Assembly (NCBI GenBank): GCA_973895155.1
Contig: OZ316892.1
Location: 21,081,619 to 21,145,618 of the forward strand
Source of the DNA: Marsupella aquatica
Lineage: Eukaryota; Plantae; Marchantiophyta
Length of the DNA stretch: 64,000 nt
Direction: 5' to 3'
Under the pieces are notes generated by a model. That model was not told the origin of the DNA, did not search any database, and saw only the letters and a list, made by a program, of their open reading frames with translations. The first letter of the stretch is position 1. Every line of letters begins with the position of its first letter. Both the position numbers and the translations under genes were made by a program. Below are positions 29,248 to 59,972 of the stretch, piece by piece.

Positions 29248-29270
29248 CAGTCTATTCATTAAAACTGGAA
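29248..29270 (+). repeat. Left TIR of the outer DNA transposon
   Basis: cagtctattcattaaaactggaa, inverted match to 59950-59972. Confidence 0.85.
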
Positions 29271-29527
29271 AATTATTTGATCTTTGGACATTTAGGCACC
29301 AAAAATATATATATTTGGGCACAAGAATTGTACATTTGGGCAGTGGGAGTTGTACATTTGGGCACCAGATGTTGTACATTTGGGGGATCAAGATTGTACA
29401 TAGGAGAAAATGAAATATTAATTTGGATTCTAAAGAAAAACATTTGGGTGATAATAATGTAAAATGTGTTGGATAAGAAGTAGAACTTACTTACATTGAT
29501 TCAATTTGACTAATAGAATATAACTGT

Positions 29528-29670
29528 CTAGTAAAGCTTCAATATGATCTCTACCCATATAACTAGTAAAGCTTCAATATGATCTCTACCCATATAACTA
29601 GTAAAGCTTCAAATAATATGATCTCTACCCATATAACTAGTAAAGCTTCAAATGAATATGATCTCTACCC
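29528..29670. repeat. Subterminal tandem repeat, four copies of 35-39 bp
   Basis: ctagtaaagcttcaa..atatgatctctaccc at 29528, 29563, 29598 and 29637. Confidence 0.9.
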
Positions 29671-30143
29671 TTACCTAGCTAAATTAACCTTCTACTTAGT
29701 TACTAATTGAGAGCATTTAATATATTAAATTTGAATGATACCTGGCTTACTATCCATTCAGACAAGTAATTTGTTACATTCTAAGCAACTCGAGTTGAAA
29801 CTAAGGTTTACTACTAGATAGTACTAAGAGGCACTCACATCCTATCATGGATATTAAGACTTCATGTAATATATAGTCTGTATTGATATAATAATTAATT
29901 AAAGCAATTATAAAGGTATCCAAGTCCAATTACCTCCACCTATTCAAACTAGTATCCCAAAATATTATAATAATTAGTTACTTAAATAGATATACTACTT
30001 AGTACTAACCAACAGTAAGTACTAAAGACATGTCTGATTCCAAACTAATTGACATAGACTCCCTCACTCTGACATGTCTAATTCCAAACTAAATGACATA
30101 GACTCCTTCACTCTGACAGAGTGACTACTAAAAAACATTTGAC

Positions 30144-33100
30144 TTACTCAACAATCCCTTCCATGTAGGTTTTGAGTGTTTTCAAAATATTCTTGGGAAT
30201 GGTCAAACCTCTATCAATTATATTTTCTTCTCTAGAGCGTGACTTGAATCCATACATAGCAGAATTAGCAAATTGCCAACGTTCAGTGGCACTGTCAAAC
30301 CCAGGATCCACCTCCCAAGTCTTAGTGGTCTGAAAGCAACGTGAATATCGCACATGATCCGGTGCATCATGCTTACCATGTTTAGGCCTCCACCATTGCA
30401 CTTGGAACATAGGAGCATACCGTGTACTAGTAGGAGAATTCTCATTGCATTGCAAGTCTCCTGAAGGAACTTCATGGTTTGGGTCCACAACACCCAAAGC
30501 TCTCACCAACCAGAAACGTTCTTTCCCATTCTTCTTTTCCCATTCATCCTCTGGACGGAGAAATACAAAGTGACCTTCTTGAATATCCTGTAGAGGAATC
30601 CAACGTGCAAGTTCTCGCTCGTGTCGAGCGCCAACAAATGTTGCAGCTTGATCCTCCATCTCTTCCAGGTACTCATTCTGAAGCTCCACCATTTGTGGAT
30701 TTTGTGTACTACTACTAGGCTCCCCCAATGGTTCAGAGGTTCCTGTACTATTAACCTTGTAACCAATTCCGTGGTTGGTTTTTGGCGAGAATTCATATGT
30801 CAATGCTAACTGTATTTCTGCCTCCCCTTCAATTGTAAGCTCCCCAGATAATACTTGCACCACCATCTCCCAATATTTCACCAAAGGAAACCGTTCACGA
30901 TATGCTGTAGAGGTCTCATCCTTACAACTCTTCTTCAAAAACTCAATGTAACGATTAAGGAATGGGATGATTTCTTCAACCTTGCCTCGTACATCCCCGG
31001 AGATGGGTTTTGCAAATGGTTGACCTTCTGGTAAAATGAGAGCATTGGTGTTGGAATCAGTTCTCCAAATAGACCTTCCGGTTAAAGGGTACCAAGGTTG
31101 TTTCACATGTGCTTTGTATTGATATATTGGAATATTATCTCTCATAGAGAAAAGAAATGCCACTGGTTTTGAGTGACCCTCTATGTCTTTTACCTTGAAA
31201 GTTTTCAAAAACTCTTTGTAAGTTGCAACCTCTTGGATCAACCGTGGGATAGGATGAATGCTTTCACACTCCCAAACCTCAGCCATCAACCCCAAGAGGG
31301 TAGAAACCTCCTTGTACTTCACTTGGTTGGATACTTTCAAAAACAATGCATCGACATCCTCATGGGTGTGACCAACCATGAGAAACGACATCTGCACTGT
31401 TTCAAAAACCCCTCTACTAACAAGCTCACTGCAAAATGCCATCACGTACTGGTTTTTGTTATCTTTCCCTGAATTATCCATTTGCAAGGTCAGGTGCCTT
31501 GGCAATGGTTTGAAAGAGGTAGACGTAGCCTTGGGATCAACACCAAAGTCGTCTTGGTCATCTTCAGCTCCTTGAAATCTAGCAATTGAGACTTTTTTGG
31601 GTTCTAAGTAACCTGCGAGAAATGCTTCAAAGTCCAAAAGAGATTGAAAAATTGGCCTCGTTGCAGCCCAATATAATCCTTCAAGGAGGTCTCCAGATTT
31701 TTCCCCCTTGTAATCCTCCAGATCTCTAAGGCACTTGGCCAATGATGTCACTGTGAAGTCTGCATCTCCCGGCCAAAGCCCAATGAAACTGAAGTGAGCA
31801 TACACAGAGATTTTTGAGGAGGTATACTCAAAAATGGAATTAGATGGCTACGTGAAGGTGAGTGAAAACACTATGTATAAACTCTGGAGTGAGTCCTTCA
31901 TGAATTTTGACTTTCACAAGGGAAGTGCATTTGCAAAGTGTACACTTTGCACTGAGTTCAAAGATCAGTTGATGCGGGAGAAGAGAAAGAAAGAGCGTTT
32001 AGAGATTGAGGAAAGAAGAGCTCGCCATTTTCGTGAGCAAATGTCTAGGAGATATGTTTACTATGCTCATAGGGTTCTTGGAAAGAAGGATCCTGAGAAC
32101 TATCTTTGCATTATACATGACAAGATGGACCAGGCCAAGACATGGATCCCTAGGTTGGTCCCCACTCCTAAATCATTGTCTGGTAGTGGTCAACCGCTCC
32201 CCATTGCGCTCATTGGGATGTTGACCCATGGAAGGGATCCCGGAGTTTCTTCGTGAAACAAGATGGAAGTCTGTACTCAACCGTGTTAGTCCCGTGAGAC
32301 CCTCCATAGGGAAGATGCGGCATGGGTTCTCCGTTTTGGGTTAGAATGGACTCCAACAAAGCACGAGCATGCAAGGTGCTTCCCCGTGTCTTGTGTGAAC
32401 CCTTGTTTCCATGGAATCCAACCGTACAACCTGCTTCATATTGATTTTTGTAATCATAATACTTGGCAGTGTTGAATCCATGCATTCTAATAAATGCACC
32501 CTTGCAAACAAGTCTACTTCTTACAAAGAAATATCCTTTTGTCTCCACTTCCTTCTCCCTACAGCCAAAAAGAGTGAGAATGTGACTGGTTTTGTTGTCG
32601 CTTGACATCCCATGGTATTCCCTCCTTATCGCCTATAGGTCTTCTCTCGGCATGCTGAGGCAACACTTCAACTTACAACAACCTTCTCTTTGGATGGAGT
32701 CAATTTCCTCCTCTATGATTTTTAGTATCGCCCGAGACTCCAAGTGCTTCTTCCTTTTTTCATCTGGGTTAACCTTCGTTCTCTTGATGAAGTTATACTG
32801 GCGCTTTGAAAAATCAGTGTCACCTTTCATATCTACCTCTAGATGATCTCGACCATCAATAATTGGTTTCAAAGAAACCTCTTCAATGAGATCTAGAAGA
32901 AAAATACCCTTTGATATCAACAGAAGTGAACGAACGGCCCACCTAACAAGACCAGGCACTCCTGGGGAGATATTTGGGAAAAATAGAGGGTCAATCACAC
33001 GTGTGACAGCAACCCCAACGTGATCTGGTCCAAGAACATCATCATCAATTGCACCTGACTCGAAAGGAACTGTGATGATGCCAACCCCCACTTTGGTCCG

Positions 33101-33860
33101 ATTATCCTCAGCATACAATTCCACCTCCTTGGTCATCCAATTAGAACGCAAACTATAATCCTTGAAATTATAATTTGCAAAAACATCCCGTGTGGACAGG
33201 TTGTTTAGCATATCCTAGGAAGAACTCCTCCGAGTAACATCCTTTAAATTCCAGAATACAAAAGTGTCCAATGCTTCCTGAACGGTATTGGCTCCATTGT
33301 GAGGAAAGGGTAACCTCTCCCTTCCTTGAAAAACTTCACATATTTTCACACTAATCCTAGAAGTGTCAAGACTTTCATTGTGACAGGTCTCATCGGGATT
33401 CGTCTTGAACACAAATCCACGAGCCACAATCTGATTGCCGATCCAGAGCTCAACTTCATCGCCAGATATAATTGAGTCTCCAAAACTTCCCACCGAAGAT
33501 TTGTCTGGTACAAAACCGGGAACCGTATCCTTTGTAGAACAAGAGGCATCCATTTGTGTTGTCGCTGGAGTTGACTGACTTCAAATATGCAAAAGAGGCA
33601 TCCCAAATAATGCAGGAGTCGACAGCATCAAATAGGGTCCTGATCGGCGGCAAAGGGTAAGGAATTTCCCATGATCCCTCATAGCACTTCTCAATGAGAA
33701 CTCCTATACGATTACTTCCCAAATCAACATTACGCACTGAGTCACCCGGGTCAACCTTGAGGACGGTCCCGCAAGCAACTTCCACTCCGTTGATTACGAG
33801 GCAAACCTTGTCCCCTCGAAAAAAATCCCCATTTTGAAAACGTGGTCCAAACTGTTGGAT
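30144..33860 (-). pseudogene. Sola-like/DUF7869-type DDE transposase with three N-terminal Tnp1/En-Spm-like domains; disrupted by two TAG stops, a frameshift and an inversion
   Basis: CCKLKCC; VCKGAF..HG; YRLPSCFTKK; FAKCTLC..H; CIIHDKMDQAK; LTLQMDNSGKDNKNQYVMAF; FLMVGHTHEDVDALF. In-frame TAGs at 33215 and 32633. Segment 31806-32246 lies on the + strand. The 5' end is uncertain. Confidence 0.8.
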
Positions 33861-35227
33861 GTAGTTACCTCGAGATGATCTCGAGGTAAAGTGACTACAA
33901 AAACAAACCAAAAAACCCAAGTATAGAAGTTTATCCCACAAAATTGTGTGATAGAGAAAATAAGAAACTCTTCTACCTCGAGACGATCTCGAGGTAGAAG
34001 AGGGACCAAAAACTCCAATATGTAAAAATTCAGAAGTATTTAGCTCGAGACGATCTTGAGGTAAAATATGAAATCTCACTGAATAGCGAATTCAGATTCT
34101 ATACCTCCGACTCTCTACAAACTCAATTATAAGAAGGACAACCGAATGCACCATTAGCTAGAAGGCAAAAGTTAATAATTTTGAGGATCAAACTTATGAC
34201 TCGAGATGATCTCGAGCCAAAAAGGACATTGTATTTGACAAAGATACTATTATGAATAATAAGCCACCCAAAATAAGAACATATAAATGGCTCTAGATGA
34301 TCTAGAGGAATGATTTGGTGCAATTAAGAAAGTAGGCTCCCAGTTTACTTCCAAACACTGAGAAATAGCTTCTAAAAGGCCATCAAATAGAGGGAAAAGG
34401 CTTCCAAATGGATTTTGACTGACACTAGTATAAGCTGAAAAGGTTTGGTTTTCTAAAAGATAGGAGCTCAATTATTTTAGACCTCCTTCAGGGCTTAAAA
34501 TGAGAATTTCTCGAAATATCCTAAACACAAACGTAGAGTCCACAACCCTTGAAAAGAACAACAGAAAGAGATCAGAGCAGAAATCTAGAGTCAAAGAGAG
34601 GGAGAGGGAGAGGGAGAGAGAGCAGAGAGAGGCAGAGGGAGAAACGAGCGAGCAATGAAACAAAATGAGAAGAATGACCCGCTGGAGACCAAAGAGAAGC
34701 AATATATAAAACCCTGACAGACAAAAAGGCCAATAAGACGGCTTGGTTGAACTTGTGTCACGGCTAAACTCGCGGCAGGGCAGAAGTACGGATAACAATA
34801 ATGACAACACGTGTGACCGTAATAATGACTGTACGCACCTAGCAGGTTGCGCGGCAGTCTGCCTGAGCCTGCACAAGCCCTGGCACGCTTGGCACGACCA
34901 AGGCCGACCCCCGAGGGGCTTATAGTGGCATCAGGGGTTTTGAATTCCCCATTTTCACATTCGCCTCCTCGCCTCCTCGCCTCCTCGCCTCCTCGCCTCC
35001 TCGCGTCCCTTGCCTCCTTGCCTCTAGATTGTTTTGCGCTCTTGCCTCGAGATCCTTGTATTAGCCTCGAGATTGCAGAGGGTCAAGATTAGGTTTTTTC
35101 CTCGAGATTTTATAGGGTCAAGATTTTGTGTTTAGGCTCGAGCTTCGATAGGGTCGAGATTTTCTATTTAGGCTCGAGATTTGTTTTTAAGTTCTCAGCC
35201 CATAGTACGTTCCTCTCTTCACCAGCC

Positions 35228-38200
35228 ATGTCGACTGTTGTAGATTTCTCCAAGGAGGACTTCGCTGAGTACAACCTTGCAACCGTTGGCGAAGAGCTTC
35301 AGACCCATCTAGACTCAGCACATCAGATCCATCGCACCATTAAACGTAATTCATCATCTTTGTTCTGTTTAGGTTTAACTCGAGATCGTCTCGAGCTTCA
35401 ATTGGTCGACTTGTTTCTGGATTCCTTGGATGCAGTTGAGGCTCGAGATCATCTCGAGCCTATTGATGTTTTTTGCAATACTTTGCTTCAAAAGTTGTGA
35501 TCTATCAATTGATTTTGCATTTGATGTAAGTGGCATGAGGCTCGAGATCGTCTCGAGCCAATATGCAATTCCTGCATGTGACCTAGTGAGATTTCTTCAA
35601 GTTGGAAACCCTTATCCTTCAAAAGTGAAACATCATATCCAAAATATCTAAAATTTCCTTCCTCCAGGGACTTCTGTACCCTCCAACTCGTTCTGATCAT
35701 TGACATCCGAACGGGTTTGTGGTATCAGAAGTCAATGGAGAAAGTGGATTTTAATCATTGATTGAATATGATGTTCATTGTTGAATATGATATTCGGATC
35801 ACTCGTTTGACATGTTAGGCTCGAGATCGTCTTGAGCCAAATATATCCCTCACCATCTTCCATTATGGTCATTCGTATCCCTTGGCCAATTTCTTCCAGT
35901 TGGAAGGATTCCATGTCGTCTACTTCAATTACTAATATCCTTTTCATGGTGATCCAAGCTTGCCTTTTGGACCACTTTCTTAGTCATCCAACTCGTTTGT
36001 GAAGATGACAAACCACTAAGTTAGAGGGTTTTGAATGTGGTCGAATAGGTGACATTGGATCATTCTTGAAAATGTTGTTCGTTAAATTTGACTGGTTCAT
36101 GATATGCAATGGAATAAAACCTCAACTGATATATATGAGGATCGAGATCATCTCGAGCCCTTGTCTTTTTCTTTTAAACAGATGGTGGCTCGAGATCATC
36201 TCAAGCCTATTGTGTTTCCTAACTATTGTGTTATCTTTTTAGATTTCTTGGGTTTAAAATCTCTTTTTAAATTCCACGGATGAAATGGCATTGGAACATG
36301 TCAGACTATTAAACTTAAAAGGAAGATCGAGATCATCTCGAGCCACCTATTTGTTTCTTGGTTTTGTAGTACATGTTTTTGACAATTGCTACATTTTGGC
36401 TGTACCAGGTGTGAAATTGGGATCGCCTAATTTGGTAGTCGAAGATGAACATGCAATTGAAGTTTCCTGCCCTGGACAGGGTTTATTTGGATTCTGTTGG
36501 GCCATTGAGCTTGCTGAAACTGAAGACATGGAAGGAACTATTATTTGTGTGAAGACGAGGTCTCCATCAGTCGATCCTCTAGTGTGCAGCCTTCTAGGGC
36601 TTATTGTTTCTATTGTGACGAGTAACGGTAAGGACATGGTTTTGACGGTGGAGAACCATGAGACAGGGAAGTGGGCTCTAATTAGACTTCACGCCAAAAA
36701 CTACTCTTGCAATCTTAACATTGAACGTGCAGCCAGGAAACAACTGAGCATGATATCAATGGGGTTCTTCCCCGAGGGTTTTACTACAAGTAATTTACTA
36801 GAAGATACTCCTATATCTGGAGCGGACATAATTTTTGGATTCCTTTATTGTCGAAAATATGGGTTTGATCGTGATGATGCATTCACGACTCCTTTCACGT
36901 GGAAGGTTTTGAGACTAATGTCGGAATCCAAATTGGGGGAGTTTGAATCCATATCCCCTGATTTTGTGTTTGGAGCCGGAGAATTTGACGAGGATGCTTG
37001 TAAAAAGTGGGTGTTGTCTCATCGGAGACAAACAGGTAAATTGAAATCTGTAGCTGCGGGAGACAAGACATCCGGTTTGGACAAAAAGGAAGCAAAGGTG
37101 TCTCAAAAGAGGAAGAGGGTTGAGAAACCCGAAAGCAAAGCGAAGAAGGCTCCACCTCAAAAAAAGTCCGCGCCGCCCAAGGTAGATCTCATTCCGGCAT
37201 CTTCCTCGGGTGTGAATGCACATACCGATGATGATGGCACTCCAGGAGATGCTCCGGGAGAAAAGAGCGTTAAGGAAGGAGCCGAACTTCTTAAGGAGAT
37301 TGAGGAGTATTACACATTTGGCATGAATGAAACTTTTGATATTCCTGTCACTAGTATAGATTTGCCGTCTGCAGTTTTGGTATATAGGATGTTCAATAAG
37401 ACCATGCCATGGAGGTCGCAAAATCCATGGTTAGAAACCCTGGAATGGTACCAGCTGTGGCGGATTTAATTTCGTATTCAAGAGAGAGTTTGTAGTTGCT
37501 CCATTATGAGAATACTGCTAAGGATCGAAAGGAGTTTGAGTGGGGTGTTAAGAATAAGAAGGTGCAGTTCCTTGCAATCAGTGGACAACACTCGGCAAAG
37601 GCAGCTGTTTGGATCATAGGTTGGGCTAAGAGCGATGCAAAGTTGAAGGAGGTCGCGAAGAGTCTGCAATATCGAAAGTCACAAATTCTTTCGGACAGAA
37701 CTCCAAGAACAATACTTGCTCAACACTCACAAAGGGCAAATGCTATTAATAAGACCATGGAGTATGAGTCTTGTTTTCTTGATACTATGGTCCATGCCCA
37801 TTGATAGTTTGACGAGTGTGGCCGTCCGGAGAGACCCGTGATTGGGTCCAATAGACTAACGGATCATCAAAAGTTCCAGGTAAATTCAAACTCAAATCCA
37901 CTTCTAGCTCAAGATTGTCTCGAGCCTCGAGGTCAAGTTTCTGTATTTGATTTATCTTCATGTATTCTCCCATAAATTTTACCATAGTTCTTTAATTCTA
38001 CCTCGAGATCGTCTCGAGCCTCAGATTTTCTTTGTACTGTTTGGATCAGGATTTTATGGCCCTTGCCAAAATAATGACTGGAAAATCCGATCTAAGGAAT
38101 ATTTTTTGGTTGCTATTTTCGGATGAGAACCTCTTCCGAACTTGGAGACAAATGTGCATCAATTGGGTCAAGGGACTTCTTCCAGATGGTCTAGGGGAGT

Positions 38201-39767
38201 TAGGTTAAAAAAAAAACGGGAAATCCCGGACAATAAAAATGATTACGCCGGCATTGTTTAGATGCTTTGAAGGAGATCTAAGTAGTGACGACATTCTGAA
38301 AGTTTTTACTGTCGTTCAACAACAGAAGATTTTATTGAAGAAAGACCCAGCCAACAAATCTGATGTTCAATCAATGAGTGATATGGCTCATACTTTCAAA
38401 GTCATGACCAAGCTGAGGGCAAAAATTGTGGAGTACTTTGTTTTGAAGTATCCGGATCGGTTTGCCAATTCACTCACTTGGTTTGAGCTAACTCAATTTT
38501 TGCCTGCATTTATGGATCGTGGTGAGTTGCCGAAACTTAGACAACTTGCTGGAGAGGTTTGGATTTCCAACCTCCTAAAAAGAAATAGGCCAAAAGACCC
38601 ATTTCCGCAAAGTCTCATTGTTAGGCTTGAGCAGATATATTGCAAGGTATTTGGCGGGTTGCCTTCAATGGAGGATACTCCTTATCGCACATTTTTTAGC
38701 GATAATTTGATGAGGACAATGAAGACTGAGATTGTTGACTCGGTGCAAAGGATGTGCCCACTCTCCATTGTCGATTTTGGTCGTCTTCGACAACGGCAGT
38801 GGACAGATGCCGAATTTTTTGTCTTGCTGGAGTATTGTTTGCAGATGGCAAACTCGACGGAGCTCTTAGTAATCATTTTTGTCCATCAAGGCCCATTGAT
38901 AGGCCAGATTCAGAGTGCCTTTGAAAATATTCATCGTGAGAAGAAAGTCCACACGAAGCTGGAGTACAGGAGCTACTACCGTGATCAGCTGCCCAAGGAG
39001 GAGGGAGATTTTCTCATTGGAGCCCAAGACTCAATCATCTTTGGGGGAATTTGTTGTGAAGAGGAACCAGACTGGTCCCAAATTTTCTTTGATGACTTTT
39101 ATGCGTTCTGGAACTACAGTGAGAAGTGGGACAAAGACTTCACAGTCTTGCCTTTGAAGGCCCCTACTGGGAACAACAAAGACCAATCAAAGGGGAAAGA
39201 GAAGCTCGATGAATCCACTGTTGATGTCAAAGTTTTGGAGAAGATGACCCCATCTTATGAGATGGTCGGTCGGCGTGGTGGCTTTGTAAATCCAAGAGCA
39301 AAGCCTTTGCGAATGACAAAGCGTCTTGTTGATTATTTCTCGTGCCCAGGTCATACAGTATTGGATTTCTTCTCTGGAGGACAGACATTGAAAGCTTGTG
39401 TCATTCTTGGTCGGGATTGTTTTGTGTATTCGGACACAGCTCAAGAGATGGAATTCACAGAAGCCTTTGCTCAGCTCCTTCATGACAACAAGCAGGTTTT
39501 ATATGTGCCACCCAAGGAGCCGTTATCATCTGAGGAAATTACTGCCGGTCCCCTCGTTGTAATAGAAGAGGCGGCCTTAGACATAGCTCCGGTAGAAGCC
39601 AGTGTTTATGAGGAAGTATTTGCGGAGAATTTAGAGCATCGCAAAACGGAGGGCCCGAAAATCACAAGCTACATGGAAGAGAAGGGTGAAATACTGCCTG
39701 AATTTGGAAATGATGCTCGAGATGATCTTGATGTTCCAGGTGTGCCTTCATCGGGTGACCTTGGGGA
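35228..39767 (+). pseudogene. Cargo gene, 5' part: ParB-like domain plus N4/N6 DNA methyltransferase-like domain (multi-exon, decayed)
   Basis: DIPVTSID..RMFNK/DHAMEVAKSM..FLAISGQHSAKAA (ParB-like); NPRAKPLRMTKRLVDYFSCPGHTVLDFFSGGQTLKACVILGRDCF (beta-class MTase motifs X/I). Intron 37880-38049 is in phase. One frameshift at ~37399 and stops at 37493, 37802, 37805 and ~38206. The 5' exons are tentative. Confidence 0.65.
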
Positions 39768-40112
39768 TGTTAGGATTTACTCTTAGGTCTAGAGTTACGA
39801 ATGTACCGTAGTTAAAACTAACCTTAGTCGCAGACTTGGTTAGGTTAGTCATGCTGTGCACACTCTATAACCAAGCGGTGTTTGCTTGGAGAGGTGGAAC
39901 TCAGGCTCATTGTTACGGAGCCAGTTGAGAGATAGGGAGAGCTTGTGCTGTGGATGCTTGGTATGGCCGGTCGGCCTAGAGTGTAGTAAAGCTCTTGTGT
40001 GTTCCCGTGGACGTAGCCTCATGTGGAGGTGAACCACGTATCTCTCTGTGTCGACTATTGTGCGTTGGATGGTTCATGGGCTTGCCATTACGATCGTCGT
40101 CTATGCTCAACA
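39768..40112 (+). repeat. 5' LTR (345 bp)
   Basis: tgttaggatttactc...ctatgctcaaca; about 9 substitutions and 1 indel versus the 3' LTR by manual comparison. Confidence 0.97.
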
Positions 40113-40114
40113 AT

Positions 40115-40126
40115 TGGTATCAGAGC
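40115..40126 (+). other. Primer-binding site (tRNA-iMet)
   Basis: TGGTATCAGAGC 2 nt after the 5' LTR. Confidence 0.95.
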
Positions 40127-41044
40127 ATGTCTGGGAGGTGACGTGTATTTGTGATGGTTTTTTCCAGTGTTGAGTGTCGGTGGATCACCCGGAGTTTTGT
40201 CGCATGGAACTTGGAGTTTATGGGCTCAACGGATAGATCGGGGCAAGAGCTTTCTAACGGTGTGAAGAAATCGTTGAACGGAGCTCGTGGTGCAGACACA
40301 ACTACATTTTGACTCAACTTAACGTTGCCTCACAACAGGCTAATCTCGACGTATGAAACTCTAAACGGAAACACGGAATCCCCAAGGTAAAATTGGCAAC
40401 GTTCTGGACGTCTATATTGACGTGGTTTCTTACGTCGTCTCACACAATGCACATTGCCACACCGCCAACGTGGTTCTTTGTGTGCACGACGTCCTATGCA
40501 TCGTTAGAGTACTGGGCTAATGTAGATTTCCATGTCCATTGAACGTCGCACGAAGTGACGTTAATACAAACAAAATGTCGTGATTGACGACGTTGACTCC
40601 CTCGTATAAGACAACGTCAATGTTTGTAACGATGTCTGGGACACCGTTTCGTTTGATGTAATGTGAATTCGTTCATTGGTTTACGTGGTGTGATAAGACG
40701 TTGTTATCATATATCGATGTCATGAACGACATTGTGTGAAAGTGGAAGACTACGTCTGGGTCATACCTTGTGAGATGCTTGGTAACTTTATGAATGAACG
40801 ACACCCCGTATATTATGTCGGACCCTGCCATACAACCTTATTGGAGGTTATAAACACACTTAAGCTAGGGTTACAATGGGGTGAGTATTATTTGGGTAGG
40901 CAATTGGGGTTTAGGGATACACATTCAATATGCATATGGTATAGACGTTGTAATCCGCGAAAAGTGTGGTATTAGATAATATTGTTATGGGCCAAATATG
41001 TACAAAATGGAGGATGAAGTTGGGCAAGTAAAATAGGCTATACC

Positions 41045-48200: not shown

Positions 48201-49597
48201 ACATTCTAGAGAGGATACGTAGTCTCTTAATACTTTACGTCATCTATAACTAGGTAATGTAAAAATACGACTCCACATACGACGTATTCAAGGTCGTATA
48301 AGTCACCCCTCTTCAGGAACATCCTGCAAAGCGACGTTTGTAGGAATCTTAGTAGAGGGAATGTTAGTAGGCATTGAATTGGTAACCATCTTAGCCCACT
48401 TTCAGATTGGGCGGTGATATTTATTCCTGTCATGTTTTTGAGTGCCTCATAGGTGGGTATGTGCCAAGGAGATCAAGGAGTCAGAGATTCCTTTGATGAG
48501 GGAGAGGACGGCGCAAGTGATGTGCAATTTGGAGCGAGTGTTCCCCCCAGCACAGTTTGACATGCAAATGCATTTGCTATGTCACCTGGTGGATGAAGTT
48601 GCCATTGCAGGCCCAGTCCATGCCCGATGGATGTATTGGGTTGAGCGATATATGAAGGTGCTCAAGGGTTGGGTGCGTCAACCCGCTCGACCTGAGGGAA
48701 GTATGGCAACAGGGTTCATTATGTCAGAGTGTCTTTTCTATTCCGGGGGGGTGATAGGGAGTTTGGATAGCAAAGCTCCCACAACTTGGGAAGAGGCACA
48801 AGATGATGACAATGGTGGGCTGCGATTGATGGGTGCGGCCAAGAAGCGATCATTGGATGATGACATCTTTCGTCGACAGATCCATAATTATGTGTTGGGG
48901 AATCGACCGGAGATGTCTGATTGGAGGGAGATGTATAGGTATGGTACTCTAAAATTTTAATCGATTGTGAATTGGATTTGAGAAGGCTGCAAATCTCTAA
49001 CAATCTTGTGACAACGTATTTGGCAGTGCATGGTTGGAGCTTCAAGTGGGAGTTGCGCAAGCAGGTCGTGGCATTGCATCATTTCGTGTCTGGGCTTTGG
49101 AGCGCATGGAGAGGCTCTTGGCTGTGCATGGGTCTACATCCATTCCCATTGATGTACAAAACATCATTAGAGGGCCAGGGATGCGGGCCACAACTCATAC
49201 ACACATGTATGAGTCAGGGCATCACTTTCGGACTTGGAGGACAGACCATATGAAGAAGAGTACTTGTAACTCTGGAATCTTCATGATGACTGATGTAGAT
49301 GATGTAGAGGTTCCTTATTGTGGGACAGTTGTGGACATTTTAGATGTTCATTTTGGGTCATTTGTCACCACTGTACTAGAGGTGAGGTGGCACAAGTCGA
49401 TCATGTCACCCCCAGCGAGAGCTACGATGGTTGCGGATGAGTGTGGTTTTTATCGTGTGGACACAACCCGAGTTGCACCCACAGGGACTGAGTTTAGTGA
49501 CACCATAGTTTTTCCTAGCCAGGTGGATCAGTGCATTATGGTTCCGATGCAGACCATGAGAGGATGGTCCATTGTCATACTAATTTTCCCTCGGTGA
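43728..49597 (+). CDS. TnpD-type CACTA transposase; exons 43728-44246, 45353-45726, 45879-46185, 46582-47086, 47190-47503, 47601-47751, 47855-48134, 48453-48938, 49027-49597
   Basis: CPCSRCK..HL..HG; IHMCPHGCILY..CP..C; LRYFPI..DSPAWKHID..EPRNVRLGLSIDGVNP..SIWPV; TDGPG; DSMHIEVNV; GLKSHDYH; FPPAQFDMQMHLLCHL..GPVHARWMYWVERYM..RPEGSMA; YCGTVVDI..DECGF. All junctions are GT-AG and in phase, and no stops were seen. Confidence 0.88.
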
Positions 49598-50278
49598 AGG
49601 AAGGGCTTCATGGCATCAGTCCTTGCAGACGATGCGGACTGACACTATCCTTCACACCCTCCATTTATATGTATTGGCTATGCCCACCTTCCACATATAT
49701 ATTGACATATGTTTCGACGTTTGAGATCTGGCAAACTGGAGGGAGAGTTGTGCAAAGTTTCTTCTTTCCTCACTTTATAGCTAAGAACACATTAAAAAGC
49801 ATTAAACCTCGGCCTTCGAACAACCTTCAATGGGTCCTAGCACGTAAACCCTTATCACGTAGGCCAATTGACACTTCGAACTTATTAACGTCAACCTCAA
49901 CGTCATTAGACAATCAAAGGTCCCTTATACCCATAATGAAGACGTTAATCTATAGTTACGTCGTAGATACGTTGTACAAACGATGTATACATAGTACGTC
50001 CTTGGTTTACCTTGTAGTAGACGACGTAGATTGTGTTACCGTGTCTTAAACGACGTAAATGTTTATTTAACCATTCTTCTGATGACGTTCAAAGTTTCAA
50101 TCGACGTTACTCACAAAACACATTACAAATATAAATTGCCTGGGAGGGACTTTTTATTCATGCGCTCAGAAACATACAACGTGCACATAAGGCATGAGTC
50201 TGACTCCAGTCTAAACTGATTCCAATCCTAGGCAAATGATGCTCCTCCGTCTCCAGCTGACCTTGGCACTAGTGTAGC

Positions 50279-50839
50279 TTAAGGGGTCCCTTCACCAGAC
50301 CAGTAGTACTCCTCATCTGCCTTCCTCTTTTTGTACGAATCACGCCTATTGCTGGCGTTCCATTTCTTGCGGACCACTGCTTCACCAACCTTCAGCCTTT
50401 CAGCCTCAATCTCAGCTGCACAGCTTTCCTTGTAGTCATACATCACAATATCAAGTTCAGTCGGTGACAACTGACATTTAGCCAACTTTGGTGGACAAGC
50501 CTCACCATCATCATCCTTGGGCGTATTGTCCAGCATCAAATCGTCCCCTGGATGCAGCAAAAACTCTTCTGGGTCCAACTCCTTATTGCCCAGAATGGAG
50601 TACTGTACCCAACAAATCGAGATGAAATGCACGGACTCTGCAAAGTGCTCGATCAATCCAAGATAGTCACTGAAGTGCTCTGTGACTTGTTTCCAGGTAT
50701 TGGCAAGCAAGTATTCCGTCTTTGAGTTACAAAACTTGTCTATCACACCTCCACGACAAAAAAAGCCACGAACAGTCTTGTCTTCTTCACCTAGCGGAAG
50801 AAAACAACAGTGGACATCCTTGAATATCTTACGTACCAT
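50279..50839 (-). CDS. Small BRCT-domain-like protein carried by the CACTA element
   Basis: IFKDVHCCF..RGGVI..KTEYLL..HFISICWVQYSILGNKELDPEEFLL fits the BRCT consensus (F, GG, THLI-like, W..S); basic C-terminal tail. Confidence 0.6.
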   Translation of the reverse strand: MVRKIFKDVHCCFLPLGEEDKTVRGFFCRGGVIDKFCNSKTEYLLANTWKQVTEHFSDYLGLIEHFAESVHFISICWVQYSILGNKELDPEEFLLHPGDDLMLDNTPKDDDGEACPPKLAKCQLSPTELDIVMYDYKESCAAEIEAERLKVGEAVVRKKWNASNRRDSYKKRKADEEYYWSGEGTP

Positions 50840-52547
50840 AGCTAAAGACTTTCAATCTCACTCTGCAAATTCTGTGCACTATCATACCCGTAGGACATCT
50901 GAAATCACGAATGACCTGTGCAGTGAGGTCCCAGTAGCCTTGCCCCAAAAACTCCCGCAAAAAACCTTACGCATGCCAATTGGATTCCATTAACGTCGTT
51001 TCCCACATTGGTCATATACGTCTAACCTCGCCCAACATCCATTATACGTTGTCATAGCATAGTATCCGTTATAGCCACGTCTGAAACGACGTACATCTAT
51101 ACGTCGACCCAACCCTATTTTGCTACACCGTTCGGGACGACGTCTACATGTTTGCCTCGTTATAAAAGACGTAAATAGCCCTATTGGGAGATACGTTAAA
51201 TTAAAGACCCTCTAGACGACGTAAAATGGGAAGGAAAGTCAAATGGGTAAACCCATTTTGGGTTACGACGTAGAGGGAGATGTACTGGGGAGTAACGTCG
51301 TGTCACATGACGCGAAAGGAAGTCACGACGTAGTGAAATGTAGTTGTGAGAGAGATCTAAGTTTTTGTCATTTTGGATTTTGTGAAGAAAGTTGGCAACA
51401 TTCGTGTTCGACGGTTTTTTGGAGAAGGGACCAGAGTTTGTTTTCTTGACGGTTTGAGCTCTACGGCAAAGGAGGCATCGCATGCTGTAGCTCTGCTTAT
51501 AGATCGGGATGAGCTGTTTGTTTTGGTAGCTGATTTGTTACCAAGTGTGTACCGTGTGCGACGGGACGAGCAAAAGAAGCATTCTGATTTTCTGACCGGC
51601 TATGGAGTCCTCTTTTGCCTGATCGGGGTTTCTTGTCGTGGAAATCGACTCGGAGGGAGAAGCGTCAAGTATTTTGACTCAACGGAGAGATTGAGGCAAG
51701 ACGATTGTTTTGAGTCCGGGATTGGCTCTTTGATGCCAAGAGGAAGGCTAAGCAAAATCAATTACCTTGTTGGACTTGGTGACGGCACCAAGTGCAATTC
51801 ATCAACATTCGTTGTTGACAAGGTACCATTTTTTCTCTTTGAAAAACTGATTCAAAATTGGCTATGGCAATTGAGAGAAATCTGTCATCTTTACCAATTT
51901 TTTTCTCTCTTGTTCTTTCCTCGTTTTGGGTGCTTCTTATACCGATCTTCACCGCCTCGAAGTCTAGTTTCCAAATCTGAAATCAGATCTTGATTTCGTC
52001 AAAACCCGAGTGAGATATCTTGCGTTTGGTGTCGAGGGGTACATTCTGCCGTGTGTATTTTCTGCGCGCGTGACCAGATTTCGACAACGAAGGGTGGTAG
52101 GGGGTTTTGGGGGTTCGAGGACACGTGTCAGCCCCTCGATTGTTCTTCCAAAATTCCCATAGGGCCTGTACAAGGGTCATAGAATATTCCAAAAAACCAG
52201 AGAGCTATTTTTTGACCGTCCAACAAAGATTTCATCCGCCGAACGGTAATTTTTTTGGTTCTTTTTTGGCGAGGTCGTAGCCATTGAAGTTGGCAACGCG
52301 ATGCACCGATCACATCACAATTCCGATGACGGGTTGTACTTCATATTTTGGTTATTCCTTGAGGTGGTCAAAACGGGGGAGTTTCCCAAGGTTTTACCCA
52401 CCTCGATCAAAATTTGAATAACTTTTCCGTCAAATTTTGATTTTGATTTTCAGTATTGGACTCCTAGCTTTGTGGGCTACGCGGCGGTGTTGAATTTTGA
52501 GTTTTTAGAGAAGTTGTGAAAAACGACATTTTTTGTGATTTTCTCAT

Positions 52548-55500
52548 ATGAGTGATTCGGAGGAGTTTTTTGAAGACGTGGAACTTGAAGCACGAGGATC
52601 ACCACGGCGGTTTGAGGGACAGAGAGAGGAGCAAGAGGAAGAGCACGAGACACCGATACCATCACCGGTGCGGCGTGTGGTGGAGGAAGCAGTACTACTA
52701 CCGGAGCTCACGGTAGTGCCAAAGAAGAAGATGGGGACTTTCAAGCTTGGGGGACCCAAGTATGAAGTGACAAAGTATGATGGGCGCTCTGACTACTTGC
52801 TATGGGAGAAGCAGGTGAAGGGAGTGCTCTATACGTCAGGGATGGGCCAACTGCTAAGCCCTCATGAAGACGATGTTGATGAGAAACAATGGGACCGCAT
52901 GTAGGAGCAAGGAGTGTGGTGTGTTACACTCTATCTCATGCCTCCCATCATCAAGCAGTTGGGTGCACATAAGGCGGGACATAAGGATTGCATGTCCTTG
53001 TTTGCGGAATTGCAGAGCAAGTATCACCGCAAGGAGTTGTCAAACCGGCTATACACTTCCTACAAACTGATGAGTTTCAGGATGAAGGAATCCGGTACGA
53101 AGTTGCAAGACCATGTGGATGCTTTCAACGACATGGTCGTTGACTTGGAAAACCTTGGGGAGACTTTGAATGATGAGACGAAGGCTCTGCAGCTTCTTAG
53201 TTCATTGCCTCCATCTTACCAGTCCCTATCACGAGTGTTGTTGCATCGTGATAGGGATATCATTTCATACAATGACGTGGTAAGTTCTCTGCTTAGTGAT
53301 GATCTTCAGCAGAAGATGCACATCACGTCACAGCCTTCATCATTTGGTGTTGCCCTCAATGTTAACCGTGGGAGGAGTATGCAGCGACCAACTGGGGACT
53401 GTAGAACCTAGTTTAGATCTAAATCCAGATCTAAGTCCAGGGGTAAATCCCCTCAGAGGAGGCAGGTGACATGTTGGAAGTGCAACCAAGTTGGACACTT
53501 CAAGCGAGACTGTAAGGGAAAGGCAGCGGAAACTTCATCGGCAAATGTGGCTAGGGCTGATGGAGAAGCTGATTTGCTCAATGATGAGTATGTTTTATGA
53601 AGTCGGGGGTATGCCCTGTGCACGTCATCCAGGAGAGCAGATGATGTATGGATTCTTGATTGTGCTTACTCTTTTTATATTTGTTACATTCGTGAGTTTT
53701 TCAGTTCTTACTCTATTTCAAACGGTTCAGTTCTGATGGGAAATGATCACTCCTATCAAATTGAGGGTATTGGGTCTGTGAAGATTCAAATATTTGATGG
53801 CGTTGTGCGCACAGTGTCCGGAGTCAGGTATGTACCTGGCATGCATAAGAATCTGATTTCACTCGGTGTGTTGGATTCAAATGGTCATCAATGAAGCGTT
53901 ATTGATGGTGAACTTCAAGTCAGATCGGGAGAGACAATGATTTTGAAGGGGAGCAGACAAAAAAAATTGTATGTGTTACAGAGAAATATTGTATGTGGAG
54001 AGGCCAATGTAACCAAGTCTCACGAGGAGATGACTCAACTGTGGCATTCACGGCTAGGCCACATGAGTGAGAAGGGTTTGGCTATCTTACGGAAGAATGG
54101 ACTCATTTCTAATTTGCAATCTTGTAAATTAGAGTTATGTGAGCATTGCATTCTTGGAAAGCAGCTTTTGGTGTTGGAACTCATCGTTCCAAAGCGGTTC
54201 TTGAGTACATACATAGTGACGTGTGGGGTCCATCCTCGACTCCCTCACACTCTGGAAAGTTGTACTATGTATCATTTATTGACGATTACTCAAGATTTGT
54301 GTGGATTTATTTCATGACGCTGATGTCTTGTCCATTTTTAAGAAGTGGAAGGCCCAGGTGGAGAATCAGACTGGAAACATGGTCAAGTGTTTGGATACAA
54401 GGGTGAAGAGTCCGAGGTCAGACAATGACGGGGAGTACACTTCAATGGAATTTGAAGAGTACTGTTTAGAACAGGGGATAACTCACCATCTCACCACAGT
54501 TTATACTCTGCAGCATAATGGTGTCGTTGAGAGGCTCAATCGGACACTGTTGGAGCGGTCACGGAGTATGTTGAGCCAATCAGGTTTACCACAAGAATTT
54601 TGGGCAGAAGCTGTCAATACCGTAGCTTATTTGGTAAATCTTTCTCCTTCTAGTGCTATCAATTTCAAAACGCCGTTTGAGATGCACTATAAGCGGCAAG
54701 CAGACTATCATGGCTTGGTAGTTTTTGGAAGTGATGCATATGCTCTCACACTGAAGCATAATAGGACCAAGTTGGATCCTACCTCCAAGAAATGTGTTTT
54801 TCTTGGGTACCAGAGTGGTGTGAAAGCCTATAGGCTATGGGATCCTATTGCCTGTAAGCTCGTTGTCAGTAGAGATGTTTCCTTCAATGAATCTAGATTA
54901 TTGAAGGAGGGGGAGAATACTCAGGTCTCCCATACTGACAAAGAAAAATCTCCTATCCCGGATCTCGTTGAGGGGGAGATTGGTTATGAGGTGCATGACT
55001 GGAGAGAAGAAGTTGCTCCAATTATGGAGCTGGTTCTTGTGCCAGAGGAACCAGAGGAGTTTGTTGATGCTGGTGAGCAGCAAGTGGATGCTGGTGAGCT
55101 TCAAATTGTACCAGCACACGCAGATCAACCAGAGTCATCGGCTATAAGAGCATCTGGTCGCACTGTACGCACTCCATGAAGGTATGGACAGTGGGTTGAT
55201 TCATCTCAGTTGCAAGAGGAGGATCGATTTTGTTACTGACGATGAGGGTGATGCGTTGATTTTGGAAGAAGGTGAACCTTCTTCATTTCATGAAGCAAGT
55301 GCTTCAAAGGAGAAGCAGGAGTGGACTGCAGCAATGCAAACGGAGATGCAGTCACTGAAGGACAACAAAACTTGGGAGCTTGTCAAGCTGCCTAAGGGAC
55401 AGCAAGTGGTGGACAGCAAGTGGGTATACAAGCTGAAGGATCAGTCCATAGGAGGTGGATCGAAGGTCTACAAGGCTAGGTTGGTAGCCAAGGGATTCAC

Positions 55501-56860
55501 ACAGGAAAAAGGTGTGGATTACAATGAGGTCTTCTCACCAGTTGCTAAGTACTCAACAATACGGCTATTGTGTGTGCTTGTTGTTATGTTTGGTCTGCTA
55601 CTAGATCAGATGGATGTTGTCACAGCTTTCCTCTATGGCACCTTGGAAGAGGTGATCTTCATGAGACAGCCGCTAGGTTTTGTGAAGAAAGGGCAAGAGG
55701 ATTTGGTTTGCAGATTGCTGAGATCCTTGTACGGGTTGAAGCAGTCACCAAGACAGTGGAATAAGCGGTTTGATGATTGGATTCATGCACAAGGCTTTCA
55801 CAGGAGTGTGTTTGACCCATGTGTGTATCTTAAACCGGTGAAGAATGCTGTCTTAGGGTTCATTGTTTTAGTACTTTATGTGGATGACATGCTAATTGCA
55901 GCCAAGGATAGGTCTGAGATTGTTAAGCTCAAGGCACTGCTTAGTGCAGAGTTTAAGATGAAGGACTTAGGGCCAGCTAAGAGGATTTTGGGTATGGAGA
56001 TCACTAGGGACTTGGAGGCTGGCAAGCTATGGTTGACGCAGAGCAGTTATGCGAGGAAGGTAATTGCAAGATTCAACATGGGGAATAGCAATCCAGTAAG
56101 TACCCCGTTGGCTCCACACTTCAAGTTATCATCAGCGTTCTGTCCTACGGATGACACAGAGAAGGGGTTGATGTCAAAGGTTCCGTATGACAAGGCAGTG
56201 GGGAATCTCATGTATTTGATGACTTGCACTAGACCTGATCTTGCCATGGCTATGGGCAAGGTGAGCAAGTACATGTCGAATCCAGGGAAGGTACACTGGG
56301 AAGCAGTGAAGTGGATTATTCGGTATTTGAAGGGTACCGTGGATCATGGTCTATTGTTTGATGCACATGCTGATAATGCTAGATCATTGATGGGCTATGT
56401 AGATGCTGACTATGCACAGGATCTAGATCGGAGGAGGTCAACAACAGGTTATGTGTTCACACTTGGAGGTGGATGCATAAGTTGGAGGTCTACTTTGCAG
56501 AAGTGTATTGCTCAGTCTACTACAGAAGCGGAGTATGTTGCAGCAGCGGAAGCAGCAAAGAAAGCGACTTGGTTGGATAGACTTATCAATGAGATGGGAT
56601 TACCATAGGGGAATGTGAAGCTCCATTGTGATAGTCAGAGTGCACTCCACCTTGCTGTGAACCAGGTGATGGACAGCAGAGTGAAGCACATCGACGTTAG
56701 GTACCATTTTATCAGGCAGGCTGTGTCTAATAATATGTTTGAGCTAGTCAAGATTGACGGTAAACTCAACCCGGCTGACGCTTTTACCAAAGTGATTCCT
56801 TTAGAGAGTTTTTCTAGACACCGTGATGCGTTGCAGGTTTTGCAATTGCCTCACAAGTAG
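52548..56860 (+). pseudogene. Copia gag-pol, disrupted
   Basis: KYDGRSDYLLW; LLSSLPPSY; zinc knuckle CWKCNQVGHFKRDC; WILD protease; LWHSRLGH..CEHC; IHSDVWG, FIDDYSR, RSDNDGEY; YKARLVAKGF, QMDVVTAFL, LYVDDML; YVDADYA, SSTEAEY-like QSTTEAEY, CDSQSA, KHIDVRYHFIR. Several stops and frameshifts. Confidence 0.95.
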
Positions 56861-57040
56861 GGTTACTTAACATTTGTGTAGATACTGAGATATGCTCTTG
56901 CTCATTCCTTGTATAGGCTACGACTTAGTTTTGGTCTACTCTCGTATAAAGAGGGAAAAATTGGTTTGGTTTTTCTTTCCAGAACTTCCCGCTGAGTAGT
57001 CATATTGATAGCAGCCTTTACCCTCACCTAGACCAGAGTC

Positions 57041-57050
57041 AAGGGGGAGA
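57041..57050 (+). other. Polypurine tract
   Basis: AAGGGGGAGA immediately before the 3' LTR. Confidence 0.9.
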
Positions 57051-57051
57051 T

Positions 57052-57397
57052 TGTTAGGATTTACTCTTAGGTCTAGAGTTACGAATGTACCGTAGTTAAG
57101 ACTAACCTTAGTCGCAGACTTGGTTAGGTTAGTCATGCTGTGCACACTCGATAACCAAGCGGTGTTTGCTTGGAGAGGTGGAACTCAGGCTCATTGTTAC
57201 GGAGCCAGTTGAGAGATAGGGAGAGCTTGTGCTGTGGATGCTTGGTATGGCCGGTTGGCCTAGAGTGCAGTAAAGGTCTTCGTGTGTTCCCGTGGACGTA
57301 GCCTCATGTGGAGGTGAACCACGTATCTCTCTGTGTCGACTATTGTGCGTTGGATGGTTCATGGGCTTGCCGTTGCGATCGTTATCTATGCTCAACA
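57052..57397 (+). repeat. 3' LTR (346 bp)
   Basis: Direct repeat of 39768-40112 followed by TSD GGGGA. Confidence 0.97.
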
Positions 57398-57402
57398 GGG
57401 GA

Positions 57403-59272
57403 TGCACAACGTGAACAACAATCTTCAACCTTGGATGTTGGCTGGGAATCCACCTTGCAGGATGCAATTAGCCAACCAATTCCAAGCCATTCTCAACTGG
57501 ATGAGATTTTCTCTACTAAGAAAGCTAGTGGCTGCCATACTCCCCCCCAGGACGAGGCAGGTGCATCGTCCTCTCCCTTGGACCAAATGTTTTGCGCTTC
57601 AGAGAATAAGCTTGTTTTCACAGATTCTTTTACTGGAAGCCCCATAATTCTCCCTTTTGTTAGGAAATTGGGGACTGAAATTGGTAGAACTGGTTACAAA
57701 TCACTCAAAGCAAGTGCTACTCATTATGTTTGGACTAATGGACCGTCAAAAGGTCAACAAGTCAGTATAGAGCAGTCTGAGAATATTATTCGATCTAGAA
57801 AGTATAGGAAGGATAAGTTCAAATTAGTGCCAGTTTGGTCTGAGCCAGCTCTTGTTGAGACCCTTCCCGGAGGGATAAATTTGGACATCCAAAACCAACT
57901 AGGAGATAACCTTCTAGATGAATTTGGGTCTTTCAGCACGTGAGGTTGAAACCCAAGTTAGTTTGAACAGTCCTAAAATTCAACCGTCTAAATTATTATG
58001 TCTACCTTCACAGAAATAGGCGGGCCCTTACCAATTGTGGAGTGTGTCGACAATAATCTCTAAAGATGTCCTGAGATTTCTTCAACTACTGACCTTCAAC
58101 CAACAATAGGTATGACGTTGACTGTTGTTCATTACCTTGTGATGCTCGAGATCGTCTCGAGCATTCCTTTATTTTATCTCCCACAATTCTAACATTGGTG
58201 TTCCTTCTTTGCAGGACCCTTGCCTCCACTTCACGGTCCGATCAGACAGAAGCTATTGATTCTTGACCTCAACAAAATGTGTTGGGATTCTGTCAAAACG
58301 CCAAGTTCCGGACCGCGCCGTAGTGCAACAAGTGTCAAGGGTGTCCACTGGGGGAGACGTGGAGGGTTTAACTTTATGTATGTTGAGCGACCCCATCTTC
58401 ACGAGTTCTTAATTGCAGCTTTTTCGTTATTTGATGTTGCCATTTGGACTTGTGCAAGGAAACCCAGGACGGATGAAATGATTCATTTGATCTTCAGTCA
58501 AGAAGAGCGAGAGCAATTCAAGTTTATTCTCACACAAGAAGATACATTCGATATTGGAATCCAGAGGCCTGACATTACCGATGGGAAGGCAAATATTCAT
58601 TTGAAGGATTTGAGGGTGGTTTGGAAACGTTATGGTGGATTATACGACGAAACTAATACACTCCTTCTTGATGACACTCCAATGAAGGCATTTGCAAATC
58701 CAGAGAATTGTGGGTTGTTTCCTTCCTCATTTTTGCATCACTCCACGGATGATACATTCTTTCCAGAAATACTATGGCCTTTGCTCAGGAAATTGTATCA
58801 TGCCTTCAATCTTCAGCACTACCTTTTTATCAATCATCCAAAGTGGTCTATGATAAATGTTTTAGCGGACAGAGATCAACAGGCTGCCATTTATGCGTTG
58901 TTGATGGAGCAATGGGGTAGTATGGTATGGGTTCATTTGGTTATCCATACAGTCTTGGATGTCACAGCGGACGAAATTCCTTGGGATGTCAAGAATGAAG
59001 TGCAACAATTACCACCAATGGAGGAATTGACGGAGGAGGCGATCAACGACCTTGCAAAGACGTTAATTGGATATCAGTACACAAGACCCTACAGAGACAA
59101 TCATTGGGGATTTGTTTCGGAAGTCTTGAGGTGTAGGGACCTCACCACGAAGTTCTGGAATACGAAGCCTCTCGATTTCTGCAATCGCGATATGAAATAT
59201 GACCTGTCAGGGTCTAGATTTACTTGCTCAAATGAATTCTGCGGGGTGGAGGAGCATGAGATTTGGGTCTAG
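57403..59272 (+). pseudogene. Cargo gene, 3' part: linker exons plus FCP1/NIF-like HAD phosphatase domain (58215-59272)
   Basis: The frame continues SSGDLGD|AQREQQ after Copia removal. KLLILDLNK, ERPHLHEFL..FDVAIWT, HLKDLRVVW, NTLLLDDTPMKAFANPEN. Confidence 0.75.
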
Positions 59273-59949
59273 ATTATCTCGACCCTACACTGAACAGTTA
59301 CAATGTGAGTTGTAGATATACATATTCTTACTCAAAAAAAAGTGAAGCTATGCGTACTATCCATTTGAGTCTAGATGTTGTTGATCCTCTTTTACTTATA
59401 GATATGTTCTCAGAAAAAGGTTATTTGGGTCTTGACCCTATACAAAGGGAATAGCTAGAGATATAGATTCAACAACGGGTCAAAATTATGTGGACCCTAC
59501 ATTTGGGTCGAGATAATCTCGACATAGATTTTTACATAGTAATTGATATACATTCAACAACCGGTCAAAGCCATCTAGAGCCTGCATTGGGGCAGACGTG
59601 GTCTCGACCCTGTAAAAATAGGTTTTTTACTTTTATAATACATCACCGGTTTACCTTCCGTGTTTGTGTAACTTGGTTATCACAGGTCATTTGAATTTAT
59701 TATATTGTCTTATTCTATTTTTTCATTGTTTATATTGTATATAATAAGAACACTTTATTGTCTTTTAATTAATAAGTATTAATAATTGATAACTGAATTA
59801 TTTAATTAATAATTTGGGCATTAGAATTGTAATTTTAGACCTCAAAAAGTGTATATTTGGCCACTAAAATATATGCTTTTGGGGAACAAGTTATAGAACT
59901 TTTGGGGGTAAAATAAGAAATTTGAAGGTCAACTTCTGGACTAGAGAAA

Positions 59950-59972
59950 TTCCAGTTTTAATGAATAGGGTG
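59950..59972 (-). repeat. Right TIR of the outer DNA transposon
   Basis: ttccagttttaatgaatagggtg, inverted match to 29248-29270. Confidence 0.85.

Follow-up and report, generated by a model that had tools for sequence, protein, structure and literature searches.

Does a liverwort transposon encode a protein that recognizes the element's own DNA, and would such a protein mark that DNA or only bind it? The question is raised by a 64,000-nucleotide stretch of the Marsupella aquatica genome (contig OZ316892.1, positions 21,081,619 to 21,145,618 of the forward strand), here called the window; all coordinates are positions within it. The window holds a transposon with terminal inverted repeats (TIRs), a transposase gene, an accessory gene on the opposite strand, and dispersed copies of a 17-bp palindrome. 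A first-pass annotation proposed that the accessory protein recognizes and marks or protects the transposon's copies. We found that the protein's methylase-like domain belongs to a family lacking the catalytic motif and that the palindromes are concentrated in the element, which suggests a protein that would bind its sites and not methylate them.

The accessory gene and its methylase-fold domain

The accessory gene lies on the plus strand inside the TIRs, opposite to the transposase gene. From the DNA sequence we predicted three exons. Exon 1 (35228 to 35345) is followed by a GT..AG intron (35346 to 36408) whose removal gives an open in-frame join to exon 2 (36409 to 37879), which encodes an N-terminal region and then a ParB-like segment. 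The second predicted intron (37880 to 38049) is spanned by residue 43 of the homolog P0001. The 5' part of exon 3 (38050 to 39767) encodes a helical region and the methylase-fold domain, and the frame continues across the insertion site of a Copia retrotransposon to the 3' end of the gene (57403 to 57943), placed from its open frame and its homologs. It ends in a conserved E-F-G-S-F tail and a stop at 57943; the homologs P0001, P0002, P0003, and P0198 terminate at the same motif. The N-terminal region (36409 to 37000) has many predicted hydrophobic strands and gave no family match.

A search of cluster representatives gave 84 matches to the accessory protein. The homologs named among the 30 proteins looked up were five from Calypogeia, on five contigs, seven from Riccia, and one from the fern Ceratopteris. 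Many homologs are fragments, as expected for transposon genes. Judged from these sequences, the family is multicopy and dispersed in related plants and is not a single host gene, the outcome that would have undone the original proposal. The methylase open reading frame (ORF) had no match among metagenome contigs.

The methylase fold predicted from the letters was recovered in two ways. The ORF in the window matches Pfam N6_N4_Mtase with 28.7 bits (cutoff, 26.7), and a structural model of the homolog P0198, confident over most of residues 270 to 750, matched CcrM over residues 463 to 756 (Z = 17.6; root mean square deviation, 3.7; 224 residues). BceJIV, MboIIA, RsrI, PvuII, and the rotifer N4CMT (PDB 8s9m-o) followed at Z values of 15 to 16.5, and the first unrelated row scored 5.5. 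The model shows a permuted Rossmann fold with the motif IV side ahead of motif I. These results support a beta-class amino-methyltransferase fold for the accessory protein, as modeled on its homolog. Searches with the whole model gave no clear structural counterpart for the helical region 5' of the fold; in ParB-parS systems a helix-turn-helix binds the palindromic site.

The catalytic motif is missing from this fold. At the motif IV position, which was set by domain order and by aligning IVDF with YVDLPF of a distant relative (locus L028, described below), the gene in the window has D-F-G-R (38773 to 38784). The family pattern there is D-F-x-R, with D in 33 of 36 aligned rows, then F in 30, and no prolines. 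[DSN]PP[YFW] occurred in 0 of 87 homologous proteins, DPPY/SPPY having been replaced; some rows are near-duplicates, and the count omits P0074, a bacterial-type protein matched via motif I only. Motif I is retained as DFFSGG (39364 to 39381; D, G, and G in 36, 37, and 38 of 41 rows, respectively), one residue shorter than motif I of RsrI and FxGxG, and a V-N-P-x-x-K-P motif is well conserved. The prolines and final aromatic residue of motif IV position the target base (PMC4738411). The same survey describes unusual motif IV variants in eukaryotic clades; among the clades noted from it, there is no land-plant clade of the present type.

The simplest reading is that the domain is likely catalytically dead and possibly still binds a cofactor, so that the protein likely cannot write N4-methylcytosine (4mC) or N6-methyladenine (6mA). 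Because the catalytic motif is absent, binding rather than methylation of the sites is likely. With motif IV absent across the family, the proposal that the protein marks its own copies is unlikely to be right, and so is the suggestion that such elements were a vehicle for methylases of the type of Marchantia MpDN4MT1, which has a TSPPY motif.

The ParB-like segment

The ParB-like segment (about 37260 to 37879) carries a frameshift and stops in the window; in the intact homologs P0198, P0204, and P0080, it and the methylase part belong to one protein. ParB/Srx domains carry a D-G-x-H-R-type motif, in which G-x-x-R is the nucleotide-binding motif. The plant segment has SGQHS instead, in all five plant sequences that cover it, versus DGGHR and DGMHR in two distant loci, L028 and L056. 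ParB identity is likely but still a lead, and the annotated ParB domain was not recovered by any profile in the libraries searched.

Palindromes within the element

The motif CTCGAG-N5-CTCGAG occurs at 14 sites in the window with no more than one mismatch, versus 0.04 expected, and none of 100 shuffled sequences reached 14. All 14 sites are within the element and none is in the Copia insertion. If two mismatches are allowed, the element proper accounts for 18 of the window's 21 sites; with the 17-mer consensus, CTCGAGA(T/C)(C/G)(A/G)TCTCGAG, at up to four mismatches, 19 of 21 do. The estimate of about 20 element-restricted palindromes was thus close.

The 19 palindromes of the consensus scan are dispersed from 32837 to 59523, and 16 of them lie outside predicted coding sequence, in introns, between the gene starts, and in the 3' flank. 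The stretch between the two gene starts (33836 to 35227) has five, at 33869, 33977, 34044, 34200, and 34291. Introns 1 and 2 of the accessory gene have seven and two, respectively, and the intron of a NIF-domain gene, described below, has one. Just 5' of the accessory gene start there are also an 8-bp repeat (34953 to 35016) and three tandem units with palindrome half-sites (35066 to 35172).

The transposon and its transposase

The element is a genuine cut-and-paste transposon, though a decayed one. An inverted-repeat search initially paired 29243 to 29270 with 59950 to 59977. With the ends reset to 29246 and 59974, the arms are 25 bp long (29246 to 29270 on the plus strand and 59950 to 59974 on the minus strand), identical at 23 of 25 positions, and flanked by an exact 4-bp target site duplication (TSD), AATG (29242 to 29245 and 59975 to 59978). 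The ends annotated earlier, 29248 and 59972, are 2 bp short on each side and give no exact TSD; the TIRs of that annotation are real, and their length is 25 and not 23 bp. Minus nested insertions, the element is about 13 kb. Beyond the TIRs it is flanked by a 104-bp direct repeat (27569 to 27672 and 63099 to 63202; 81% identical).

The minus-strand gene matches Pfam DUF7869 (E = 7.9e-39). Its nearest relative is P0086 of Calypogeia fissa (65%), many of its 103 matches are from Riccia sorocarpa, and its alignment had no match among viral contigs. The homologs P0190 and P0200 cover the gene in separate pieces. The 3' part (30147 to 31805), placed by Pfam and homology, contains the DUF7869 core and the region of the second and third acidic motifs (DNSGKDNKN and GHTHED). 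The 5' part (32246 to 33835; 5' end approximate), placed by homolog alignment, has stops and frameshifts, and its N-terminal unit is matched twice, by P0200 residues 4 to 82 at 33824 to 33594 and at 33460 to 33236. The piece between the two parts, 31807 to 32247, is inverted, because P0190 residues 44 to 190 align there on the opposite strand, which bears out the inversion suspected from the first reading.

Stops and frameshifts occur in the transposase and accessory genes alike, the former has the inversion, and the latter is interrupted by Copia; the copy is decayed, as had been noted, and can no longer make either protein.

We took DUF7869 to be equivalent to Sola1, an equation that also leans on ends and a layout like those of the Ectocarpus element Sola1-1_Ec32. 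Sola elements are recognized by TIRs with a 4-bp TSD (PMC10741241), and this element has 25-bp TIRs and AATG. It is probably of the Sola1 type, as judged from these sequence features. The earlier description of a Sola-type TIR element with a divergent accessory gene holds, by the TIRs, the 4-bp TSD, the DUF7869 match, and the opposite strands of the two genes.

A second gene and nested insertions

The 3' end of the element contains a NIF domain (Pfam, 61.7 bits; cutoff, 21.8) in a predicted NIF/FCP1-like HAD gene (57998 to 59272, plus strand) with one early stop. Its intron (58110 to 58214) is in frame. HAD phosphatases of the NIF/FCP1 kind have the catalytic motif DxDx(T/V); the ORF, one decayed copy, has DLNK where DxDxT was expected. 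The NIF part is probably a separate, second gene: a stop at 57943 closes the methylase-like frame, and the NIF ORF after it starts with an ATG of its own, at 57998, and contains its own intron. On the same grounds we rejected a fusion of ParB, methylase, and HAD domains in the window: the N6_N4_Mtase and NIF domains of the annotated multidomain cargo are both present, and a single protein is unlikely. Of 23 aligned sequences, Riccia P0060 alone joins the NIF and methylase parts, perhaps because two gene models were merged. We regard NIF as likely to be a second passenger gene.

The Copia insertion in the accessory gene, also noted in the first pass, is a decayed long terminal repeat (LTR) retrotransposon on the plus strand (39768 to 57397; TSD, GGGGA) with paired LTRs (39768 to 40112 and 57052 to 57397) identical at 336 of 346 columns. 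Within it lies an EnSpm/CACTA-like element (40297 to 51348, plus strand; CACAA ends; TSD, AGA) with Tnp2 pieces and, upstream of Tnp2, a SET-domain ORF (44438 to 45208), which gives this genome a further accessory gene of chromatin type. Elsewhere, positions 1 to 27000 have host-like genes (Kelch, SGL, cyclophilin, and FKBP), and a decayed reverse transcriptase region is at about 1700 to 4200.

Other loci with DUF7869 transposases

Alignment of the transposase to metagenomes gave at least 597 stretches, of which 462 were confirmed; the best 80 were examined and fell into 66 clusters. Profiles of the plant ParB-like and methylase parts matched none of these 80 loci, and the NIF profile matched only L035 and its two duplicates. 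Among 115 ORFs from 33 representative loci, Pfam found one N6_N4_Mtase domain (L028) and one NIF domain (L035).

L028 (270 to 5746 and 6743 to 9463) has an apparently intact spliced gene upstream of, and on the same strand as, a DUF7869 transposase. The upstream gene has the motifs IDGGHR (ParB-like), DLPF, and DFFAGT plus a SET domain, and two CTGATCGGCCGATCAG palindrome sites lie between the genes. In L056 a spliced ParB-like ORF with IDGMHR (221 to 868, minus strand) is head-to-head with a DUF7869 transposase, and the contig stops before a further domain appears. Neither ParB-like segment has a Pfam match. The two transposases are 35 to 37% identical to the core in the window and grouped together, outside the plant clade, in a tree of 38 sequences (FastTree, midpoint root). 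The pairing of a DUF7869 transposase with a ParB-like/N6_N4_Mtase gene thus recurs in a distant eukaryote (L028). Compared with the copy in the window, the L028 gene is a stronger candidate for an active enzyme that marks its own element.

Palindromes recur more widely. L035 (867 to 12139) is an 11.3-kb TIR-bounded element (TSD, ATAT) with all 38 palindromes with the core GTGGCCAC inside its TIRs and a divergent NIF ORF with two NIF-like matches opposite the transposase. L029 is a 4.6-kb TIR-bounded element with 8 of 10 palindrome sites inside; both tallies are raw counts without a shuffle control. The TIR end of L035 is shared by many other loci. Further, different palindromes occur in L001, L010, L057, L088, and L089, and many loci have no such motif. 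In L088 and L089, whose records are titled as bacterial bins, arrays lie on both sides of the transposase. In 14 genome-contig loci, a scan of 40 ORFs detected none of the ParB, methylase, and NIF families; these loci look like eukaryotic DNA in bins, because L089 adjoins a Helitron with an OTU domain. Private palindromes thus seem to be a trait that recurs in this group of transposons; they fit a system of helper plus sites acting in trans, and also binding by the transposase.

What the accessory protein may do

The reading that we prefer, with about as much doubt as conviction, is that the helper is a noncatalytic dimer that binds the palindromes and keeps copies of its family active. A protein with ParB-like and methylase-fold parts and no catalytic motif would likely act as a sequence-specific binder of its own 17-bp palindromes. 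A dimer would bind each palindrome, near both promoters and in the introns, and binding would keep the copies transcribed or competent for transposition, by analogy with the action of VANC on VANDAL elements. The conserved motifs on the S-adenosylmethionine (SAM) side may still bind the cofactor. The 4-bp TSD and head-to-head layout, as in Sola1-1_Ec32, support this reading, as do the fold of the modeled homolog, the family-wide loss of motif IV, the noncoding position of most palindromes, and the comparable genes and palindromes at other DUF7869 loci.

Several results weigh against it. The plant ParB-like segment had no match in Pfam, PHROG, NCBIfam, or PDB; a model of this segment alone had a predicted local distance difference test score of 42; alignments of its profile to the L028 and L056 segments did not exceed shuffles or lacked significance; and its only look-alikes in the Atlas were DUF3723 clusters (0.95) and a cluster in which 35% of the members carry ParB_N (0.91). 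Some loci have palindromes although no accessory gene was detected in them, and, as noted, the plant ParB-like and methylase profiles matched 0 of 80 loci. By gene number, none of the accessory models of Riccia and Calypogeia adjoins a listed transposase, the nearest being 11 genes away. A neighbor test gave P = 0.04 (permutation, third-nearest), which is weak because transposable elements cluster; it used gene numbering, a partial transposase list (75 Riccia tags), and fragmentary repeat annotations.

An alternative is that the transposase itself binds the palindromes, to assemble the ends or to activate itself, and that the accessory genes ride along as passengers whose role, if any, is a different one. 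Palindromes beside DUF7869 transposases in loci such as L029, where no ParB-like or methylase gene was detected, and the flanking arrays of L088 and L089 are in line with this idea, and transposases have been reported as sequence-specific activators (10.64898/2026.08.24.746577). However, the sites in the window are not subterminal, none being less than 3.5 kb from the left TIR, and 9 of the 19 are in accessory gene introns; sites used in trans would be kept by deleted copies whichever protein binds them; and ParB-like genes adjoin inverted-repeat arrays in the unrelated Plavaka elements. We consider transposase binding unlikely, though the most probable of the alternatives. The separation of the numbered Riccia (seven) and Calypogeia (five) models from listed DUF7869 genes could also mean that the accessory gene and palindromes are a cassette that moves among transposon families, the tie to Sola1 being one capture. 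Red-algal accessory genes have been reported to move among Plavaka, Zisupton, and Fanzor elements (10.1101/2025.02.11.637652), and the plant and L028 methylase domains aligned with an hhalign probability of only 24%, so two captures are possible. Yet Ectocarpus and the window show the same pairing, as do L028 and L056, and the annotations and transposase list behind the separation are fragmentary and partial. Such a history, which we think quite improbable, would in any case be compatible with a binding role.

Least probable, in our judgment, is that the protein is an active, noncanonical N4C/N6A methylase that marks the palindromes. The full beta-class fold, as modeled, the Asp conserved where motif IV begins, V-N-P-x-x-K-P, and DFFSGG would suit an enzyme, near-canonical motifs persist in relatives from other eukaryotes (L028), and variants of motif IV are on record (PMC4738411). 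Against this, both prolines and the final aromatic are absent in 36 of 36 aligned rows, and motif I lacks one residue relative to FxGxG.

Relation to known systems

The first-pass annotation called this a candidate new system, and for algae the design and the self-binding idea are already in print (PMC12477816; 10.1101/2025.02.11.637652). Ectocarpus Sola1-1_Ec32 is 21.5 kb long, with an opposite-strand gene for a 1,104-amino-acid ParB-like plus N4/N6-methylase protein that is proposed to bind and modify its own element; it has AACCG ends and a 4-bp TSD, and its best match is a moss Sola1 transposase (PMC12477816). The element in the window shares the 4-bp TSD, ends starting with A, the opposite-strand accessory gene, and the same self-binding idea. 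From the Ectocarpus element as described, it differs in its land-plant host, 25-bp versus 282-bp TIR, NIF gene, and absent motif IV. It also has dispersed palindromes; the stem "palindrom" is absent from the main text of PMC12477816. In Bostrychia, the Plavaka accessory genes PAG2/PAG3 (PF01555 methylase plus SET, and ParB-like) lie beside inverted-repeat arrays (10.1101/2025.02.11.637652), and the methylase-plus-SET ORF of L028 shares the domain pair of PAG2. Unlike the element in the window, Plavaka has an EnSpm-lineage transposase, separate ParB-like and methylase genes, and tandem arrays.

The antisilencing protein VANC, encoded by VANDAL transposons, acts on family-specific motifs in the noncoding parts of these elements, as shown by experiment (PMC5735166). 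Antisilencing of the VANC type means that the protein binds such motifs and that methylation falls. VANDAL belongs to the Mutator superfamily, and the likeness is an analogy that suggests no homology. MpDN4MT1, with its TSPPY catalytic motif (10.1101/2021.02.12.428880), and rotifer N4CMT are likewise beta-class folds in eukaryotes but are host genes that keep the catalytic motif; the accessory protein is 9 to 11% identical to N4CMT in structural alignment, and MpDN4MT1 is set apart by its description. Literature searches, with Repbase, supplements, and Iyer et al. 2011 (cited for green algae) outside their scope, found no land-plant report of the accessory gene or its motif-less form and none of differing element-specific palindromes beside DUF7869 transposases.

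By analogy with VANC, early land plants might have a second, independent antisilencing system, in which Sola1 elements use a catalytically dead, possibly SAM-sensing binder derived from a prokaryotic ParB-methylase and each family's own 14- to 20-bp palindrome is its private address; we put this forward tentatively, thinking it possible but rather doubtful.

Our results extend the algal design to land plants, with multicopy homologs in Calypogeia and Riccia and one fern match. The accessory family is an unpromising source for MpDN4MT1 and tells us little about how Marchantia 4mC arose. Its family-wide loss of motif IV predicts that plants kept binding and not methylation, and the binding half is directly testable with a 17-bp candidate site around both promoters and in introns and with the liverwort homologs. 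If this holds, land plants would have a second instance, besides VANDAL, of transposons that recognize themselves, together with a set of natural protein-palindrome pairs.

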